A stretch of DNA of 64,000 nt from a virus, in UHGV virus genome UHGV-0036582. The stretch is one strand, 5' to 3'. Made by a program: the position numbers and the translations under genes. The notes under the pieces are model-generated. The model was not told the origin of the DNA. It saw nothing but the letters and a program-made list of their open reading frames with translations, and searched no databases. Of this stretch, positions 6,423 through 63,500 are shown piece by piece. Each line of letters opens with the position of its first letter. Positions within the stretch are counted from its first letter, which is position 1.

Positions 6423-6548
6423 TGTTTCAGTTTCTTTATCAACCTACTAATTAACCTTTACACCGCAGCCGTAGGCATTTAGGCTATATCACATATAAGA
6501 AAACAAGTTGTTTCAGACGATAATTATATACGCAAAGGGAACTCTCCA

Positions 6549-7217
6549 ATGACCAAGATCTTTGTGGTTGGCGGCACAAAGGGCGGGCCTGGCAAATCCA
6601 CCGTTGCCCAGCAAATTGCCGTTTGCCTGAAAGTCAAAAAGAAGAAGAAGGTTTATATCACTGATATAGATATTCAGCGCACGACAACAAGCTGGTGTGA
6701 AGACCGTCGACAGAACGAAGACCTTGAGCTGATTCCTTTTGCATACGTTCAGGATGACATCATTAAGCACCTAAAATCGCTTCAGGGTAGAGCTGAGTTT
6801 GTAGTGGTAGATGCTGGTGGCTTTGACTCCGAAATTCAGCGACAAGCGATGCTGATGGCCGACGTTATCATTATCCCGCTGCGTCCTAAGCGTCGTGATT
6901 TGAAATCTTTACGTGACATCGATCCTATTATCGACAATGTTCGTAATGTAAACGATAAAGTGAAGGTCCGCGCGGTCATGAACCAGTGCCCGGCTTTGCC
7001 ATCACAAGTGTCTCGCATTTTGGCGGCTAAAGAGATTGTCGAGACGTTTGGCATCGAGTCTGCGCCAGTCAATTTATATAACCGCAACGTCTATGATGAT
7101 GCGGAAGAGTCTGGTCGTTCTATCTTTGAAATGACCGGTAGCGAGCGCGACAAAAAGGCGGAAGCCGAGTTTGAAGAATTTGTAGATTATCTGTTGAGTC
7201 TGGAGGAAGAAGAATAA
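6549..7217 (+). CDS. parA: ParA/MinD-family partition ATPase
   Basis: Deviant Walker A motif KGGPGKST in MTKIFVVGGTKGGPGKSTVAQQIA; 222 aa; followed by a small overlapping ORF as in type Ib partition operons. Confidence 0.8.
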   Translation: MTKIFVVGGTKGGPGKSTVAQQIAVCLKVKKKKKVYITDIDIQRTTTSWCEDRRQNEDLELIPFAYVQDDIIKHLKSLQGRAEFVVVDAGGFDSEIQRQAMLMADVIIIPLRPKRRDLKSLRDIDPIIDNVRNVNDKVKVRAVMNQCPALPSQVSRILAAKEIVETFGIESAPVNLYNRNVYDDAEESGRSIFEMTGSERDKKAEAEFEEFVDYLLSLEEEE

Positions 7218-8504: not shown

Positions 8505-8562
8505 ATGCCTGCTTCTGTATATATTTAATAAGTTACTTATTATTTATATATACAGAAGCAGG
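8505..8562. repeat. Perfect 17-bp inverted repeat (cctgcttctgtatatat) around an AT-rich loop; a near-identical copy lies at 55689-55750
   Basis: Arms cctgcttctgtatatat / atatatacagaagcagg; the loop contains ataagttacttat, related to the genome-wide palindromic motif. Confidence 0.7.
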
Positions 8563-9421: not shown

Positions 9422-9464
9422 CTAATACTAGAAAACAATTTGTTTAAAAAACAAAGGAAAGCAC

Positions 9465-34383: not shown

Positions 34384-34434
34384 CTCGTTATTATCACACA
34401 CAAGAAAACAATTTGTTAAAAGGTTAAGTTAATT

Positions 34435-51351: not shown

Positions 51352-51765
51352 ATGGCAAGAGGTATGTATGTCTTATGCGAAATTGAAGGTGTGCTGGCAA
51401 ATACCAGCCATCGTAAATCTGTATCTGACTCGGATGCAGGCCAATTCATTGCCGGTGATGAACTCATTTTCCCCACCAGCCGTATGTTGCGTGGTTTTGC
51501 TCGCTCAGGGGCTGAAGTGGTGCTTATCAGTAGCCGCTCTGAAACTCTTGAAGCGCCCACTAAACGATGGCTGAAAGATTTTGGTGTTGATTACGACTGG
51601 CTTCACCTCGTACCGAATAGCACTAGTTATGAGAAGCATATTAAGCGCACATTAGCGGAGCATAAAGGCGATCTGCTTATCGCTGCGCTGGTGCACGATC
51701 CTCGACTCCGTGCCGCTTTAGCTGACTCACATCATAGACCGGTCATCTATGAGGTGAGCAAATGA
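51352..51765 (+). CDS. Hypothetical protein between thyA and the DHFR gene
   Basis: Start set at the ATG at 51352, just after the thyA stop; the listed start at 51256 would overlap thyA by about 95 nt; 137 aa. Confidence 0.45.
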   Translation: MARGMYVLCEIEGVLANTSHRKSVSDSDAGQFIAGDELIFPTSRMLRGFARSGAEVVLISSRSETLEAPTKRWLKDFGVDYDWLHLVPNSTSYEKHIKRTLAEHKGDLLIAALVHDPRLRAALADSHHRPVIYEVSK

Positions 51766-52238
51766 AGATGATAGCTGCTGTTGGCCGTAACTATGAGATC
51801 GGCATAGCGAACGAACTGCCCTGGCGTTGTTCTACCGATCTGAAGCTATTTAAGAGACTCACCAAAAACGCCACTGTCGTTATGGGGCGTAAAACGATGG
51901 AAAGTCTCAAACGCCCTCTTCCAGAGCGTCATAACCTCGTTTTGACGCGCTCTCATGGCTTTGTACCAAATGGATTCTACCCTGCTGGTGTGGATGATGT
52001 GTTGCGATTACCAGAGCCTGTGTGGGTGATTGGCGGGGAACAAATTTACTCGCTATTCATGCCGCATGTTGAAGAGATTTGGCTCTCCCACATCGGCGTT
52101 GATGTGCCAAACGCCGATGCATTCTTCCCGGCAAGCATGATGCGTAATTTAGGCTTTGTGCCTGTTGAAACAGCTTATACCCAACGAGCCAGCGAGGAAG
52201 AGCCTGGCTTTTCGCAGATCGTATACAGAAGGTCGTAA
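51762..52238 (+). CDS. folA: Dihydrofolate reductase
   Basis: N-terminus MKMIAAVGRNYEIGIANELPWR..DLKLFKRLT and VVMGRKT match the DHFR signature; 158 aa; adjacent to thyA. Confidence 0.85.
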   Translation: MKMIAAVGRNYEIGIANELPWRCSTDLKLFKRLTKNATVVMGRKTMESLKRPLPERHNLVLTRSHGFVPNGFYPAGVDDVLRLPEPVWVIGGEQIYSLFMPHVEEIWLSHIGVDVPNADAFFPASMMRNLGFVPVETAYTQRASEEEPGFSQIVYRRS

Positions 52239-52882
52239 TGGATTACCGGATTGGGATCACTGGTGCTCAGGGCAGTGGGAAAACAACCCTGGCTAAATAT
52301 ATCGACAAACATTACGGAATCCCTTACGTGGATGCTGGTGTCGGAAGTTTGATGAGCCGCCTCGGTGTTCGAGTAGGTGATTCTATGCCTCTATATGAGC
52401 GGCTTCAGATTCAAATGGAAATAGCAAAGCATATAGAGCTACTTACGCGTGGTGCTGAAGGCTTTGTTATCGATCGCACACCTGCTGATGTTATGGCCTA
52501 CACGTTGGATTTGGTCGGCCATACAAATGAAGATCGGTGTATTGAGTTAGCCCTCGATATCGAAAAGTTTTGCCACAAAACTGCTATTTCAAACTTTAAC
52601 GCCATTGCTGGCCTACGCCCGGGGGTCGCTCTCTCAGAGCGAGATTACTTGCGGTCACAACGAGCATCATTAGACCGTCTGTATGTCGCTCGTATTGATG
52701 CGTTGATGTGCGGGGAACTGACAAAAATTCACCTGCATCCGCAAAGGGGAGATCTGCAAACCTTCGTCGTTTCCAACCGGTATCGCACAGTTGAAGCAAG
52801 AGCCAGATCAGTGATGAGAATGCTAGATAACGCGGTAGAAAAGATAGAAAACCGGTTCTGTGGCCGAGTGACCGTTCATTAG
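52238..52882 (+). CDS. P-loop nucleotide kinase (deoxynucleoside monophosphate kinase-like)
   Basis: Walker A GITGAQGSGKTT at the N-terminus; 214 aa; lies in the nucleotide-metabolism block. Confidence 0.5.
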   Translation: MDYRIGITGAQGSGKTTLAKYIDKHYGIPYVDAGVGSLMSRLGVRVGDSMPLYERLQIQMEIAKHIELLTRGAEGFVIDRTPADVMAYTLDLVGHTNEDRCIELALDIEKFCHKTAISNFNAIAGLRPGVALSERDYLRSQRASLDRLYVARIDALMCGELTKIHLHPQRGDLQTFVVSNRYRTVEARARSVMRMLDNAVEKIENRFCGRVTVH

Positions 52883-52943
52883 AAATTGTTCGCCTCTTCG
52901 ACATTGCGACAATAAAACTCTCAAAATGGGTTAAGGATAAAAA

Positions 52944-53363
52944 ATGTTTAGTGAAATGTTGCTTGAAGATGAACTGGATCGGAAAACAACAGAGGCTTTG
53001 ATTCGTGTAGCGGACGAACATTCCCGGTCGCTTATGAGCGATCGAGAGGCTCGTCTGGCTATTCGTGCCATATTCGAAACTGCGCAGGGGCTTGTTGGTA
53101 CACAAGTGGGTGAAGCCATTAACATCGCCATGTCTCAGTTCAGTGAAGGCAGTAAAAAGTCTCTGTTTCCTATGCATTTGATGCTGGCTGGTGGCACGGT
53201 GCTTTATATCTCTGTTTGTCTGGATAGCAACCAAATCAATATTCTCAACACTGTGTCAGGTAAGTGGAAAGATCCGATTGTCTGTGAAACCAGTGAAGAA
53301 ACTTTGAAAAAAGCGGCTCAATTTGTACGTAGCGCACTACTTAAGGGCGCTAAGAAGTTGTAA
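52944..53363 (+). CDS. Hypothetical protein
   Basis: 139-aa ORF. Confidence 0.45.
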   Translation: MFSEMLLEDELDRKTTEALIRVADEHSRSLMSDREARLAIRAIFETAQGLVGTQVGEAINIAMSQFSEGSKKSLFPMHLMLAGGTVLYISVCLDSNQINILNTVSGKWKDPIVCETSEETLKKAAQFVRSALLKGAKKL

Positions 53364-53372
53364 GGAGTTCTG

Positions 53373-53930
53373 ATGACAACGATTGTTGCAGGCATCGATA
53401 TCGAGTCTACGGGACTGGATTTCCTTGCTGGTCATAAAATTATTGAAATCGCAATTACCCGCTATGAACTGGAGACACAGAGACATATTGATAGTCTGGA
53501 GATGCGTTTTAACCCTCGCAGAAACATAGATCCGAAAGCTCAAGCCGTTCATGGCATTTCATTGGAACAGCTCGCAGCTGAACCTTTGTTGTCAAATCAT
53601 GCCAGCGAAATTGGCGCTTATATGGGGGCATGTAGTGTGTGGGTTGCTCATAACGGCGAAGCATTTGATATACCATTTATTCGACACGAGTTTTCAGGGT
53701 ATGGAGTAAGACTGCCAGAAGTTCCTGTTATAGATACTATGTTATCGGGATTGTGGGCCACAGAAGACGGTAAACGTCCCCGCCTTGAAGAGTTGGCCTT
53801 CTCTCTTGGCTATATATACGATCATGCCAAAGCACATAGTGCCTTATATGACACAAACTTAATGATGCAATGCTTCTTTAAGGCACGTAATAAGTACGGA
53901 TTTTTTAAATTACCCTCTGAAATTGTGTAA
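53373..53930 (+). CDS. DnaQ-like 3'-5' exonuclease (DEDDh family), candidate proofreading subunit
   Basis: Exo I GIDIESTGL, Exo II WVAHNGEAFDIPF, Exo III HSALYD. Confidence 0.75.
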   Translation: MTTIVAGIDIESTGLDFLAGHKIIEIAITRYELETQRHIDSLEMRFNPRRNIDPKAQAVHGISLEQLAAEPLLSNHASEIGAYMGACSVWVAHNGEAFDIPFIRHEFSGYGVRLPEVPVIDTMLSGLWATEDGKRPRLEELAFSLGYIYDHAKAHSALYDTNLMMQCFFKARNKYGFFKLPSEIV

Positions 53931-55081: not shown

Positions 55082-55675
55082 ATGATTGCAGCCGAAAAAA
55101 TCAAACAGCGAAAGCGCGACAACTCTCTTCGTGACCTCTGGAGAACACCTGACTGGCTGTTTTCTGCCATTCAACGTTATCTTGGAGTGACATTTGATGT
55201 TGACGTTGCCTGCAACAAGGACAATGCAAAGCTGCCTAATTTCATAGGCGTTGAGCGTGATGCTTTGAAATCTGAATGGGGACAGCCAGGTACAATTGCC
55301 TTCCTAAATCCACCCTACTCCAAAATCTCCCCCTGGATTGATGCGGCTATACGTGAGCAGGCTCGCGGAGTTACAACAGTGATGCTAATTCCTCAATCCC
55401 TAGATACAAAGTGGTATGAGCGTGCAACAGAGTGTGCGAATGAGACGATTATTCTGTCTGGTGGCCGCGTAGCGTTTGTCGAGCCTGACGTAAATCTGGG
55501 TCAGGTAGAAGTAAACATCAACCCAGGTGGCAGTATGCTCGTTGTTTTTCGAGGATTCTGTCAGGACGCTGGGCACTCTATAAGCAAGATCCCTTTGGAC
55601 GTCATGAAAAGTCTGGGAGGGTATGATCCTGCGAATGTGATCAGGAAAAAAAGACCATCAAAGAAGGCTGCTTAG
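55082..55675 (+). CDS. Phage Dam-type DNA N6-adenine methyltransferase
   Basis: Catalytic motif NPPY in IAFLNPPYSKISPWIDAAIRE; 197 aa. Confidence 0.7.
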   Translation: MIAAEKIKQRKRDNSLRDLWRTPDWLFSAIQRYLGVTFDVDVACNKDNAKLPNFIGVERDALKSEWGQPGTIAFLNPPYSKISPWIDAAIREQARGVTTVMLIPQSLDTKWYERATECANETIILSGGRVAFVEPDVNLGQVEVNINPGGSMLVVFRGFCQDAGHSISKIPLDVMKSLGGYDPANVIRKKRPSKKAA

Positions 55676-58106: not shown

Positions 58107-58199
58107 CGGTTGTTAGTGCATATGCATTGACCGTCTCTGCGTAAGCAATTTATGTAACCAGAAAACAATTTGTTTTGACAAATAGCAAAAGGAAAACAC

Positions 58200-58812: not shown

Positions 58813-58922
58813 GTTGACCGAAATAGAGAGTTTGCACCTTTACGTTTAGCTTGCTCCCCTTTTATGCCACATCACAATAAAGCCAATAAGAAAACAACTT
58901 GTTTAAGCATTAGGAAAAACAC

Positions 58923-59492
58923 ATGTGCAAGAAATGCAAAGCGATAGCTGATGAACAAAACGCCTTATTCGAAGAAATGGATGCTAATGAACTGGTCAAA
59001 ATGTTAGCCATTCTTCGAGGAATAGAAGACGTTTCCATATTTGAGAGAGTGGTTACAGCACTTAATTTTGAGTCCACCTTTGAAGAGCCAACTCAGGTTG
59101 TAGCTTTAGCACATCATTTCGGTGTTCATTATCTTGCTGAAAAAGAGCGCGCTGATAAGTTGCAGGCGACTTTGGATATGGTGAGCGAGACTCAACGAAC
59201 TGATGACACTAACAAGAGTGAGGCGATTATTGCCAGCAAAGATCGTGAAATTGCTGGGCTTAAATCCTCTCTAACGATGTTGATGTCTGCGTTCAATCTT
59301 ATGTCTTCTCAGGCGGGTTATAAAATGCCATCACTAAACAGCGATGATCCGATGGCCGTTCGTCAGCTTTTGGGAGCAATGGCCGACCAACTCGACGACA
59401 CAAAGAGTCGGCTTGAAGACATGATGCGTGAGTTAAGCCATCGACATAACCTCGCAACACAGCCACACAAAGCCTTTCAAAGCTCTAATTGA
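58923..59492 (+). CDS. Hypothetical protein
   Basis: 189-aa ORF with leader ggaaaaacacATG. Confidence 0.45.
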   Translation: MCKKCKAIADEQNALFEEMDANELVKMLAILRGIEDVSIFERVVTALNFESTFEEPTQVVALAHHFGVHYLAEKERADKLQATLDMVSETQRTDDTNKSEAIIASKDREIAGLKSSLTMLMSAFNLMSSQAGYKMPSLNSDDPMAVRQLLGAMADQLDDTKSRLEDMMRELSHRHNLATQPHKAFQSSN

Positions 59493-59547: not shown

Positions 59548-59829
59548 ATGGCATACGGTACAGGGATTTACAACAATAAAGGAATTAACGTTACTGGCTT
59601 CCTTACTCCTATTTTTTTTCTTGATCGATTTACGGCGTCATCAGGCTCTAAGACGTACTCCAATCCGCCACCGGGTAAATCGCTACATGCCGTGTGGTCA
59701 TTGATGCCTCTTAACAACGACAACTACATTAATTTACCTGTTCCAACAGTTACTATTAATGGAAATACGGTTAGTTGGTCAAATTTATATACGGGGCTTG
59801 GTTCTTACATATACACATACTGGGGATAA
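59548..59829 (+). CDS. Hypothetical Asn/Tyr/Gly-rich protein (AT-rich gene)
   Basis: 93-aa ORF; lower GC than the surrounding genes. Confidence 0.4.
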   Translation: MAYGTGIYNNKGINVTGFLTPIFFLDRFTASSGSKTYSNPPPGKSLHAVWSLMPLNNDNYINLPVPTVTINGNTVSWSNLYTGLGSYIYTYWG

Positions 59830-59831
59830 TT

Positions 59832-60446
59832 ATGTTCGGGATGTCAATTACTCAATCAGATGGAAGTTTGTGGATGAGTCCAGAATTTACTCCGCAAAAT
59901 CTGATTAATAAAGGGACAATGTCTACATCTAAAGGTTCTGTTTTTCAAACATCAATCCCATCAAACAAATCATGCTTTTTCTTCATAAAAAGCAGTAATA
60001 AGGCGAACATGATGTTTATTCATGAGCATAGTAACGGATACAATGCTCTCAGATTGCATCAGGTAAATGGTAGCCCCGGAACAATAACAGTTTATGCTTT
60101 TTCTGATATGGTGTTACCACATTCTGGCTATGGCATTGCCATGTATAACAGCGCAGGCGCAATGGTGTATCACGGTGAGATGATGCCCCTTGATGCGAAA
60201 CTTATCACTATTTCGGACCCTCAATTTACCATAGATGTGGGGTATCCGTGTGCGGTAATGCCTGCTATGGTTGGGGTTTATAACTATAGACGAACCGATT
60301 ACGACAGACCTGTCTATGTAACTATGACCGGTGCAACTGGAAACCAAGTATATAACGGTCAATGGTATTCCGGTAATGTCACATGGGATATTAAGAAGAT
60401 TTATACAAACAAAATCCTGGTTATAAATACCTCAAAGTATGATTAG
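59832..60446 (+). CDS. Hypothetical protein (AT-rich gene)
   Basis: Start set at the ATG at 59832, directly after the previous stop; 204 aa. Confidence 0.4.
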   Translation: MFGMSITQSDGSLWMSPEFTPQNLINKGTMSTSKGSVFQTSIPSNKSCFFFIKSSNKANMMFIHEHSNGYNALRLHQVNGSPGTITVYAFSDMVLPHSGYGIAMYNSAGAMVYHGEMMPLDAKLITISDPQFTIDVGYPCAVMPAMVGVYNYRRTDYDRPVYVTMTGATGNQVYNGQWYSGNVTWDIKKIYTNKILVINTSKYD

Positions 60447-60508
60447 CAAATACCTTTATTTAAAGGATTGCCTGTTAATTTCTATTTAGCACCTTTTCAT
60501 TTTTGAAA

Positions 60509-60550
60509 TAATTGCACCATTAAACAAATCTTTTCTTAATGGTGCAATTA
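60509..60550 (+). promoter_or_regulatory. Perfect 15-bp-stem hairpin covering the translation-initiation region of the methyltransferase gene
   Basis: taattgcaccattaa ... ttaatggtgcaatta; the right arm ends at the A of the ATG at 60550. Confidence 0.5.
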
Positions 60551-62235
60551 TGAATACAGCTCTTTCCATCATCGACGATGCCAACTCAAACACTGCTATC
60601 GATTATCGTCAGGAAATGAACGTCATCCACGAAATTGTGGCCGAGTGCGAGAAGGAGATCGCCTTCATGTATCAGGTTCACGACTTCGTTTATGGAGACG
60701 AACGCCACAACATGATTAATCGCCTGCTGCAACTGAACCACCGACCAGATGAAGAACGCTCACGTTTGAATCGAGCTTGGCTGGATAAAGTCGATCTGGA
60801 ATGGGTGAAACAGAATATTTGGGCCGAGTACTGGAGGAAGGTCACGGATATGACTAACGTTCTGCTGATCATGCCAGCTTCCCGTCGCGACGAGTGGCGT
60901 GAGCAGTTTATCGAGGGTAAGCAGGAAGTCATCAAAACTGACAGAACCGGCTATCAGATGAAGGTAAAAGAGTTCGTTGGTGTACCGGAGTTCAAAGCAG
61001 AAACGGTCATACCCACGATGCTTAATTTGCTGAATGACAGGCACAAATATCTCTCTGAGCGCGTGTATGGCTTGTTTAAGGCGCTGAGTCCTGCGCACAA
61101 GACAAATAAGACAAACGGTTTCAGCGAACGTCTGATAATCGCTGACTGCATTTCTGATTTCTGGCGGGACAGCGTTAGTGTGAACTATCGCAAAGAGGAC
61201 TATATCGACGATCTGCGTGTCTTGCTTCATTTCTTCGCGCACAAAGAATTTATTACCATCAACCGCACTGCTGAGGTGCTATCAGCTGCGTATCGGGCAA
61301 ACGACTGCCAGACCGGTGACTGGATGAACGTCGATGGAAATCTGATGCGCGTGAAGATGTTCAAGAACGGCAACGTTCACTTTGAAATACATCCTGACGT
61401 GGCCTGGAAGTTGAATGAGGTGCTGGCTTACAGTATGCCTGCTGCAATCCCCGCGCCATGTCGCACCGCGCCAAAAACACGGGCACCAAAGCAGTTCGGG
61501 TTAATCCAGAAGACGATCTCCGTGCCGGTTCGCACTGCGCTTCGTGACGGGCGATTGAGCAAAGACAAAGGCGTATGGTACTTCTCTGATTCAGCTCTCC
61601 AGAAGTCGCAGGTGGAAGAGCTTGAGCGCACACTGAGCTTCATTGGCGGCGTGCAGGAGAAAAAGCACTGGCAGTTCCCGTATGACATCGTCCATACGCT
61701 AAATACGATTGTGGCTACCGGTTTAATACCGGATACAAAATCACACCAGTTCTACCCTACCCCACGCTTGATTGCTGAGTACGTTGCCAGAGCCACTGAA
61801 TTGAAGTCTGGTGAGAAGCTGCTGGAGCCTCAAGCCGGACGTGGGGATCTTCTGGCCTATATTAACGCCGATCTGGAAGATGTTACCTGCATAGAAATCG
61901 CACCTCTCTTCGCTGATATCCTGCGTGGAAAAGGGTATACGAACACGATTTGCTGCGACTTCATAAAGTGGTCTGAGGACAACGTAGGTTATCAGTTCGA
62001 CAAAATCGTTATGAACCCGCCGTATTCGCTTGGTCGTCATAGAGAGCACACGCTGGCTGCGCTGGGGCATCTGAAAGTCGGCGGGCGTCTTGTAGCAGTA
62101 TTGCCGGGCACTGCGCCAATACTGGACTGGATGACGATGGATAATTACGTTTATGCCAGAGGGAAGTCGTTTACCAACGAGTTTGAAGACACAGGGATCA
62201 CAGTCAGCGTATACGTTTTCAAACGCGTTAAATGA
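60550..62235 (+). CDS. Orphan DNA methyltransferase (N6-adenine type) fused to a large N-terminal domain of unknown function
   Basis: C-terminal 150 aa carry QFYPTPRLIAEYV, SAM-binding LLEPQAGRGDLL and catalytic IVMNPPY; the N-terminal 400 aa or so have no recognisable motif. Confidence 0.7.
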   Translation: MNTALSIIDDANSNTAIDYRQEMNVIHEIVAECEKEIAFMYQVHDFVYGDERHNMINRLLQLNHRPDEERSRLNRAWLDKVDLEWVKQNIWAEYWRKVTDMTNVLLIMPASRRDEWREQFIEGKQEVIKTDRTGYQMKVKEFVGVPEFKAETVIPTMLNLLNDRHKYLSERVYGLFKALSPAHKTNKTNGFSERLIIADCISDFWRDSVSVNYRKEDYIDDLRVLLHFFAHKEFITINRTAEVLSAAYRANDCQTGDWMNVDGNLMRVKMFKNGNVHFEIHPDVAWKLNEVLAYSMPAAIPAPCRTAPKTRAPKQFGLIQKTISVPVRTALRDGRLSKDKGVWYFSDSALQKSQVEELERTLSFIGGVQEKKHWQFPYDIVHTLNTIVATGLIPDTKSHQFYPTPRLIAEYVARATELKSGEKLLEPQAGRGDLLAYINADLEDVTCIEIAPLFADILRGKGYTNTICCDFIKWSEDNVGYQFDKIVMNPPYSLGRHREHTLAALGHLKVGGRLVAVLPGTAPILDWMTMDNYVYARGKSFTNEFEDTGITVSVYVFKRVK

Positions 62236-63381: not shown

Positions 63382-63500
63382 ACGCTACAAATCCTTCGGC
63401 ATGAATAAATAAAGGCCATAAGTTGTGGCCTTAAATAAATTGTTTTCTACCTTTTCTTATTTGTGAAAATAACCACAACTAGAAAACAACGGAGTTAAGA

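Follow-up and report, generated by a model that had tools for sequence, protein, structure and literature searches.

We analysed a 64,000-nucleotide stretch of the virus genome UHGV-0036582 (referred to here, in its entirety, as the window), which carries at positions 60550..62235 a gene encoding a methyltransferase with a long N-terminal module and, across the start codon of that gene, a perfect inverted repeat. The interpretation that we favor, with moderate confidence, is that the gene encodes a conserved solitary DNA methyltransferase of SSU5-like phage-plasmids, that it is expressed from its own promoter, and that in one lineage of these elements the operator accompanying this promoter has decayed and the sequence around it has become a new perfect palindrome.

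Identity and distribution of the methyltransferase gene

Over the region harboring the gene, the window matches E. coli plasmid CP057798 without a difference (100% identity), and identity is 97% with Escherichia phage Cyrano and ~90% with Salmonella phage SSU5. On the basis of these identities, the element represented in the window is an E. coli SSU5-like phage-plasmid of ~109 kb. The open reading frame at 60550..62235 (+ strand) encodes a 561-amino-acid DUF4942-methyltransferase protein that aligns from end to end with PHROG 6263 (E = 2.5e-299) and is the ortholog of SSU5 gp095, with 89.7% identity between the two genes at the DNA level. The ATG at 60550 is the earliest possible start following the in-frame stop, and the N-terminus specified from this position is kept among homologs as MNTAL or MSTAL.

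The coding sequence is likewise 100% identical in CP057798 and 97% identical in Cyrano, and in both it is annotated as 'DUF4942 domain-containing protein'. In SSU5, gp095 is annotated as 'DNA methyltransferase', the pHCM2 name for the same gene is 'YdiA', and RefSeq labels it either 'DUF4942 domain-containing protein' or 'class I SAM-dependent methyltransferase'. At the protein level no differences set the window gene apart from SSU5 gp095 and pHCM2 'YdiA', which also share its genomic position, with the TerB/gp094 genes on one side and the Ead/Ea22-like and HD-domain genes on the other. Full-length alignments with the proteins of other SSU5-like plasmids range from 62 to 99% identity.

The gene was found in 240 of the 5,426 complete E. 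coli genomes surveyed (~4%), exclusively on plasmids, and in 555 PLSDB plasmids from Escherichia, Klebsiella, Enterobacter, Salmonella, Citrobacter and other genera. By sequence comparison it is a standard, already catalogued member of the DUF4942/PHROG 6263 family, identical to existing database entries and therefore already known. As a routine component of very common enterobacterial phage-plasmids, which spread resistance genes, its re-finding is not in itself news.

The C-terminal catalytic domain

The C-terminal domain spans residues 396-561 (61735..62232, + strand). Alignment of 24 homologs allowed three motifs to be read on the + strand: motif X, FYPTP (residues 401-405; 61750..61764), directly preceded by an invariant Q400 and corresponding to the 'TP motif' helix cap (PMC5512222); motif I, LEPQAGRGDL (residues 425-434; 61822..61851), assigned to S-adenosylmethionine (AdoMet) binding; and the catalytic motif IV, NPPY (residues 489-492; 62014..62025). 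Across 68 homologs, E426 and G430 of motif I and N489 and P491 of motif IV are invariant. The order X-I-IV (QFYPTP 400-405, LEPQAGRG 425-432, NPPY 489-492) is the gamma order, bearing out the adenine-type methyltransferase motifs that the initial annotation had read at the C-terminus, and the domain presents a Rossmann-like class I methyltransferase fold that superposes on solved members. The chain ends 69 residues past NPPY, with no target-recognition domain C-terminal to the catalytic domain and no HsdS-like gene among the annotated neighbors.

Profile searches returned PADLOC matches to mad2 (E = 6.7e-15) and to Type II methyltransferases (E = 2.7e-10), and PHROG profiles of giant phage proteins (1,259-3,925 amino acids) match the methyltransferase module only (E = 7.4e-19). 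Together with PHROG 6263, these are the closest profiles, and all of them describe DNA methyltransferases. A sequence search of solved structures yielded, for the catalytic part, a marginal match to M.TaqI (E = 0.11), and in a Pfam search of the 561-amino-acid protein all methyltransferase matches were sub-threshold. The combination of a TP-capped helix and NPP(Y/F) has been described as the signature of EcoKI/TaqI-like N6-adenine methyltransferases in phage and plasmid proteins (Iyer et al. 2017, PMC5512222). As judged from motifs, motif order and fold, residues 396-561 are a gamma-class (EcoKI/TaqI-like) AdoMet-dependent amino-methyltransferase.

The N-terminal module

The remainder of the protein had been described as a 400-amino-acid unknown N-terminal domain. 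It is indeed without assigned function, but residues 140-295 belong to a named family, Pfam DUF4942 (PF13708; 74.5 bits, E = 1.2e-20, gathering threshold 25 bits), which was matched in all 68 aligned homologs. We assessed conservation on this 68-sequence alignment (29-44% identity) as the frequency of the majority residue, and distinguished three segments on the + strand. Residues 1-85 (60550..60804) are acidic, helical and poorly conserved (frequency 0.21-0.30), the first 18 being disordered in the structural model (predicted local distance difference test, pLDDT, below 50). Residues 86-300 (60805..61449) form a conserved core that contains DUF4942, and residues 301-395 (61450..61734; isoelectric point 9.7) comprise a basic, length-variable linker and a small alpha/beta domain ending in a conserved IGGV...FPY motif. 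Both core and linker are basic by charge.

Mean majority-residue frequency in the core (0.51-0.58) equals that of the catalytic domain (0.53), which rules out a hypervariable target-recognition domain for the N-terminus. Six polar residues of the core (S180, H183, T185, N186, H277 and N289) are invariant across the 68 sequences, and R164, E170, R194, D221, R223, D262, E279 and R305 are nearly so. Variation is concentrated in residues 1-85, 121-140, 201-220, 241-260 and the basic 321-360, and the interval 305-366 around the basic segment ranges from 55 to 82 amino acids in length across the family. Only the SSU5 clade carries the inserted beta-hairpin at residues 124-142, and residues 121-140 are 71% gaps in the alignment. 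The end of the module is also found with the methyltransferase elsewhere: residues 328-395 co-align with it in a family of 1259-amino-acid phage proteins (phrog_9133, matching residues 328-560).

An exhaustive HMMER search with residues 1-395 recovered 614 representative clusters (50% identity), 159 of them at E < 1e-30. Nearly all of these clusters are proteins of 500-580 amino acids matched over residues 90-395, and the same architecture (510-580 amino acids) is found throughout the SSU5 phage-plasmid group and in lambdoid prophages. With at least 614 representative clusters sharing it, the suggestion of an unusual fusion does not hold. Conversely, the possibility that the N-terminal region might be a known target-recognition domain was not borne out: it is not one, and it has no solved structural relative, since searches of solved structures with the whole protein and with the N-terminal profile returned no significant match for this part. 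A Foldseek search against viral predicted structures retrieved only two uncharacterised phage proteins of ~250-270 amino acids.

The conservation pattern of the module fits a conserved DNA-engaging scaffold with a few specificity loops and, less probably, a second catalytic site. A recognition domain would not ordinarily be so strongly conserved or carry invariant His, Asn, Ser and Thr residues, and these features could point to catalysis. It is a doubtful possibility that the N-terminal 300-395 residues are a new module, either DNA-clamping or base-selecting, or catalytic in its own right, that would make the family a distinct methyltransferase class. If so, a family of more than 600 clusters would constitute that class, carrying out, for instance, a context-independent or unusual modification for broad anti-restriction.

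Putative promoter and palindromic operator

To characterize the control region of the gene, upstream sequences were taken from 77 ortholog loci, yielding 48-53 distinct sequences from relatives down to ~45% protein identity. An extended -10 element, TGn followed by (G/A)A(A/T)AAT, recurs in 42 of the 48 distinct upstream sequences, and in 38 it ends 37-39 nt before the ATG. In the window the putative element reads TG-a-AATAAT (60504..60512, + strand), with TG at 60504-60505 and the hexamer AATAAT at 60507-60512, and it predicts a transcription start near A60519. Against this assignment, a generic sigma-70 two-hexamer scan called no promoter here, and both promoter and transcription start are to be read as predictions.

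Between the -10 element and the Shine-Dalgarno sequence, 37 of the 48 distinct sequences carry the palindrome AAACAA-n-TTGTTT. In the window, comparison with relatives identifies a degraded remnant of it, AAACAAATCTTTTC (60522..60535, + strand), which forms the loop of the hairpin described below. The palindrome is shared with other genes: AGAAAACAAnTTGTTT, with the core AAACAA-n-TTGTTT, lies 11-42 nt upstream of at least six other + strand genes in the window, usually just downstream of a -10-like element. These sites, at 6498-6513, 9430-9445, 34403-34418, 58160-58175 and 58889-58904, together with a half-site at 63481-63489, precede start codons at 6549, 9465, 34435, 58200, 58923 and 63501, respectively, and a second imperfect copy of the palindrome is found at 63435-63449. 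From this arrangement, AAACAA-n-TTGTTT looks like the operator of a regulator common to SSU5-like phage-plasmid genes. This putative shared operator, lost at one gene in one lineage, is perhaps the more useful result for understanding gene control in SSU5-like elements.

A side observation concerns the promoter of the HD-domain gene. The interval 63430-63499 upstream of this gene contains a 33-nt imperfect inverted repeat (73% complementary) in which an operator-like copy stands on either side of an extended -10 element (TGTGAAAAT). The promoter of the methyltransferase gene is laid out in a similar way in SSU5 and in the Klebsiella relatives.

Relative to SSU5, the region upstream of the methyltransferase gene differs in two respects: the window lineage has a two-gene moron where SSU5 has a terminator, and a 16-bp palindrome where SSU5 has the shared operator. 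The inserted genes lie between the gp094 homolog (58923-59492) and the methyltransferase gene. The first (59548-59829) encodes an unknown protein of 93 amino acids, and the second (59832-60446) a protein of 204 amino acids assigned to PHROG 425 ('membrane associated protein', category moron). The insertion site in SSU5 holds only the strong terminator.

A perfect inverted repeat over the start codon

The inverted repeat consists of a 5' arm, ATAATTGCACCATTAA (60508..60523, + strand), which coincides in part with the putative -10 hexamer and takes in the predicted transcription start, and a 3' arm, TTAATGGTGCAATTAT (60536..60551, + strand), which holds both the weak Shine-Dalgarno sequence GGTG (60541-60544), the sole Shine-Dalgarno-like sequence present, and the AT of the start codon. 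It had been reported as a perfect 15-bp hairpin ending at the ATG; the hairpin is real, but its stem comprises 16 perfect base pairs around a 12-nt loop, and its 3' arm reaches into the ATG, of which it covers the A and the T.

Folded as RNA, the repeat reaches -22.6 kcal/mol, compared with -8.2 ± 2.6 kcal/mol for dinucleotide shuffles (z = -5.5), and none of 200 shuffles was as stable. Perfect inverted repeats of at least 16 nt with arms no more than 40 nt apart occur twice in the 64-kb window, this hairpin being one of the two. Given its folding score and the rarity of such repeats, the hairpin cannot be put down to chance. A longer perfect inverted repeat, the longest of the window, lies elsewhere, with 17-nt arms CCTGCTTCTGTATATAT and ATATATACAGAAGCAGG at 8508-8524 and 8546-8562, 21 nt apart.

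Two simple assignments were rejected. The hairpin is not an intrinsic terminator, as no T run follows the stem on either strand and the terminator scan called none. Nor does its arm appear to be a repeated element or operator, the arm sequence being unique in the window: matches with 0-2 mismatches are confined to the two arms themselves, and three other sites match with 3 mismatches. No Rfam match was found for the hairpin.

Distribution of the hairpin among relatives

Stems of at least 12 bp are restricted to the narrow E. coli clade with at least 97% protein identity, with the addition of an independent 13-bp stem containing G·U pairs in locus L043 (80% protein identity); the remaining lineages present matches of only 5-6 bp, CACCA/TGGTG or similar. 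The 16-bp perfect form was found at 13 loci and, with a single C>T change that gives a G·U pair, at 4 more (L020, L021, L027 and L041). A 12-bp form, ATAATTACACCA/TGGTGTAATTAT, whose 21-nt loop keeps a near-intact operator, was found at 10 loci. Exact-pattern scans of IMG/VR showed the two main forms to be about equally common there, at 12 and 13 contigs. The 16-bp form accompanies the two-gene insertion and the 12-bp form accompanies the terminator.

The 16-bp and 12-bp forms differ by a two-sided change, G-C versus A-T, and the 77 loci did not reveal conservation of the structure with covariation among homologous genes. In the 16-bp clade, variable positions amount to 1/32 in the stem and 2/12 in the loop, so that no measurable excess of conservation sets the stem apart from the loop. 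Every position that departs from the ancestral sequence is in the 5' arm, and every such departure raises complementarity to the conserved 3' arm, which contains the Shine-Dalgarno sequence and the start. Because every change in the 5' arm increases complementarity to this constrained 3' arm, the palindrome probably arose through templated correction. Quasi-palindrome mutagenesis is established in E. coli, where template-switch correction makes imperfect palindromes perfect with no selection needed, and the one two-sided change seen here can also be explained by templated mutation, without selection. The sequence of events would thus be that, in the window lineage, the AAACAA-n-TTGTTT operator decayed and the sequence from the -10 element to the start became a 16-bp perfect palindrome, probably by template-switch 'correction' of an older 5-bp complementarity.

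Possible functions of the hairpin

We next consider what such a palindrome might do. In most relatives, the gene would be driven by its own extended -10 promoter, with the palindromic operator just downstream. In the window, the 5' arm overlaps this conserved extended -10 element, and since the predicted start lies inside that arm, the gene's own transcript probably escapes the hairpin. A leader beginning at A60519, ~7 nt past the -10 element, folds at only -4.6 kcal/mol (z = +0.7) and has no significant structure, while starts at 60516 or 60513 would leave stems of 8 bp or 11 bp, respectively. No terminator-like site was detected by the scan between 60446 and 60550, and read-through RNA from the upstream inserted pair would contain both arms, so that methyltransferase translation would be blocked on such transcripts only. 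The 16-bp palindrome could therefore be a recently evolved insulator that silences the enzyme on read-through transcripts. This insulation model, in which the promoter, the transcription start and the consequence of the hairpin are all predicted, is coherent; what speaks against it is that a strong terminator immediately precedes the 12-bp variant, which would make insulation there unnecessary.

The alternative that comes closest, plausible though not preferred, is that the inverted repeat acts as DNA. It would be either a new operator for a dimeric regulator, replacing the lost AAACAA-n-TTGTTT and spanning the -10 element and positions +18 to +33, or a functionless quasi-palindrome perfected by template switching. 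The ancestral site at this location is itself a DNA palindrome common to at least six promoters, which marks it as a protein-binding control region, and changes confined to the 5' arm and all directed toward complementarity are the signature of templated correction. The uniqueness of the arm in the window, however, argues against an operator, and neither a regulon nor a cognate regulator is evident; the arms are 12 nt apart with their centers 28 bp apart, long for a typical helix-turn-helix operator; and variants of the G·U type suit RNA pairing better than a symmetric protein site. Of these two DNA-level versions, we consider neutral correction of the palindrome likelier than the acquisition of a new operator.

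Selected translational control is a slightly more tentative proposition. On an mRNA with both arms, the stem would sequester the Shine-Dalgarno sequence and the AUG, and would be opened by a ribosome finishing the upstream gene, by an RNA helicase, by temperature or by processing. The stem, at 16 bp and with the stability given above, does occlude both signals, covering GGUG and the AU of the AUG. Two sister lineages keep the pairing through the two-sided change, the 16-bp form having G-C where the 12-bp form has A-T, the C>T variant at 4 loci preserves it as a G·U pair, and the 13-bp stem of L043 is independent; moreover, with no terminator-like site after the upstream gene, which ends at 60446, read-through RNA is plausible in the window lineage. 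Several observations nonetheless oppose this explanation. Most of the family pairs only 5-6 bp, and the overlap of the 5' arm with the conserved extended -10 element means that the gene's own transcript should lack that arm. The 12-bp variant sits just downstream of a strong terminator (GGGGGCGAAAGCCCCC followed by a T run) that leaves little read-through, and the upstream stop codon, ~100 nt away, is too far for simple translational coupling. The variability of stem and loop in the 16-bp clade offers it no help, and the paired changes are obtainable from template-switch mutation alone.

The geometry is that of hairpins that sequester the Shine-Dalgarno sequence, such as translational operators and RNA thermometers, with the 3' arm over the Shine-Dalgarno sequence and the first two bases of the AUG. 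It differs from them in that conservation here is limited to a narrow clade, that Rfam holds no counterpart and that the 5' arm probably belongs to the promoter and not to the transcribed leader. The initial annotation had taken the hairpin to imply regulated translation. The stem does cover the Shine-Dalgarno sequence and the first two bases of the AUG, but the implication is weakened by the narrow clade distribution, the location of the 5' arm in the putative promoter and the unstructured leader predicted for the gene's own transcript. Regulated translation is possible, not implied: the hairpin could act only on read-through transcripts, could act as DNA, or could be a neutral product of palindrome correction.

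Probable substrate and proposed role of the enzyme

Returning to the protein, the gamma-order motifs, the PADLOC and PHROG profile matches and the TP plus NPP(Y/F) signature together support a DNA-adenine amino-methyltransferase, and the enzyme most likely makes N6-methyladenine in DNA. Three points weigh against this assignment. The best Pfam match is MTS, the small methyltransferase domain of the RsmC/RsmD/HemK type, in 51 of 68 family members, compared with N6_Mtase in 8 of 68; the fold cannot tell DNA from RNA methyltransferases; and in the searchable literature on DUF4942, on the SSU5 or pHCM2 methyltransferase, on methylome data and on regulation we found no functional study, including any methylome or biochemical report for a member of the DUF4942-methyltransferase family. 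Still, the alternative that the enzyme modifies host or phage RNA (N6-methyladenine or N2-methylguanine in rRNA or tRNA) or protein (HemK-like glutamine methylation), with the N-terminal module recognizing the substrate, is improbable, because the QFYPTP motif X and NPPY are the signature of the EcoKI/TaqI-like DNA N6-adenine group, the matches to DNA methyltransferases in PADLOC and PHROG have much better E-values (6.7e-15 and 7.4e-19), and family members on mobile elements have genes for replication and for other DNA methyltransferases as neighbors.

For a DNA methyltransferase of this design, DNA engagement and site choice would come from the N-terminal module, that is, from the DUF4942 core and the basic length-variable segment at 301-365, given that the catalytic domain ends ~70 residues past NPPY and that the neighborhood encodes no specificity subunit. 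The methyltransferase and the Dam-like enzyme encoded 5 kb upstream would likely pre-modify the DNA of the element, allowing it to escape host restriction on infection. An anti-restriction role is the natural, and likely, interpretation, and an epigenetic or regulatory role is possible. The family is found in ~4% of the complete E. coli genomes and on hundreds of plasmids from Klebsiella, Salmonella and Enterobacter. Once defined, its specificity would aid the reading of clinical-isolate methylomes and help to explain how these elements cross restriction barriers.

Among known systems, the enzyme would work like a solitary gamma-class N6-adenine DNA methyltransferase of a mobile element. Gamma-class N6-adenine enzymes (M.TaqI, M.BseCI, CamA and the type I HsdM) depend for DNA recognition on a dedicated C-terminal domain or on a separate S subunit, whereas here nothing follows the Rossmann fold, which is preceded by ~395 conserved residues of unknown fold, and similarity to M.TaqI is marginal. 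P1 DarB is the textbook virion anti-restriction methyltransferase. DarB-type proteins share the role proposed here, solitary adenine methylation on a mobile element against restriction, and the giant phage proteins whose profiles match the methyltransferase module are of the DarB kind. In the DarB-like methylase-helicase dyad of polyvalent proteins, the methyltransferase is combined with a C-terminal SF2/SNF2 helicase and an N-terminal LPD36 domain in a multidomain protein (Iyer et al. 2017, PMC5512222). The protein described here, in contrast, has no SF2/SNF2 helicase, no recognisable LPD36 and no evidence of virion packaging. P1 DarB was rejected as a close relative, since the two proteins show no significant pairwise similarity and the one described here lacks the helicase half. 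Finally, phage Dam-type orphans (PF05869), represented on this same element at 55082-55675, are likewise solitary adenine methyltransferases with no nuclease partner, but they belong to another family and size class (197 amino acids, with no accessory domain). Dam-family specificity is established in several phages.

Genomic context and neighboring genes

In the E. coli, Salmonella and Klebsiella elements, the neighbors of the DUF4942-methyltransferase gene encode TerB, small unknown proteins, an Ead/Ea22-like protein and an HD-domain protein. No nuclease or specificity-subunit gene was found near it in these elements or in the annotations of the window, and PADLOC detected no defense-system partner genes. 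The orphan status attributed to the enzyme at 60550-62235 is upheld accordingly, with no restriction enzyme nearby or beside its relatives. Membership in a BREX, DISARM or MADS system was rejected, as only the generic methyltransferase module matches and the partner genes are absent.

The element had also been credited with a second orphan methyltransferase, and this agrees with our results. The gene at 55082..55675 (+ strand) encodes a 197-amino-acid protein of the phage Dam family (Pfam PF05869 Dam, E = 2.5e-38; PHROG 111), and its RefSeq label in the orthologous plasmid is 'phage N-6-adenine-methyltransferase'.

More distant homologs of the DUF4942-methyltransferase occupy three further settings, none of which includes a nuclease partner. 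In a lambdoid prophage, the homolog follows lambda-P-like replication genes and lies between N6_N4 and C5 DNA methyltransferase genes; in a plasmid-like contig, it lies beside a Dam-type methyltransferase gene, a ParB-like gene (weak HTH_ParB match) and UmuDC-type genes (Peptidase_S24, IMS); and in a replication module it is found between a UvrD-like helicase and a DnaG primase. The prophage in question (locus L085, 6948-14320, on the Enterobacterales chromosome LR733916) encodes a homolog with 36% identity and carries three solitary methyltransferase genes in ~7 kb, including one of the N6_N4 type and a 699-amino-acid one of the C5 type. In the window, the Dam-family gene at 55082-55675, together with the interval 51762-53930, lies within a nucleotide-metabolism and replication block, for which the annotations in orthologous plasmids are thymidylate synthase, dihydrofolate reductase, AAA ATPase, 3'-5' exonuclease and RNase H.

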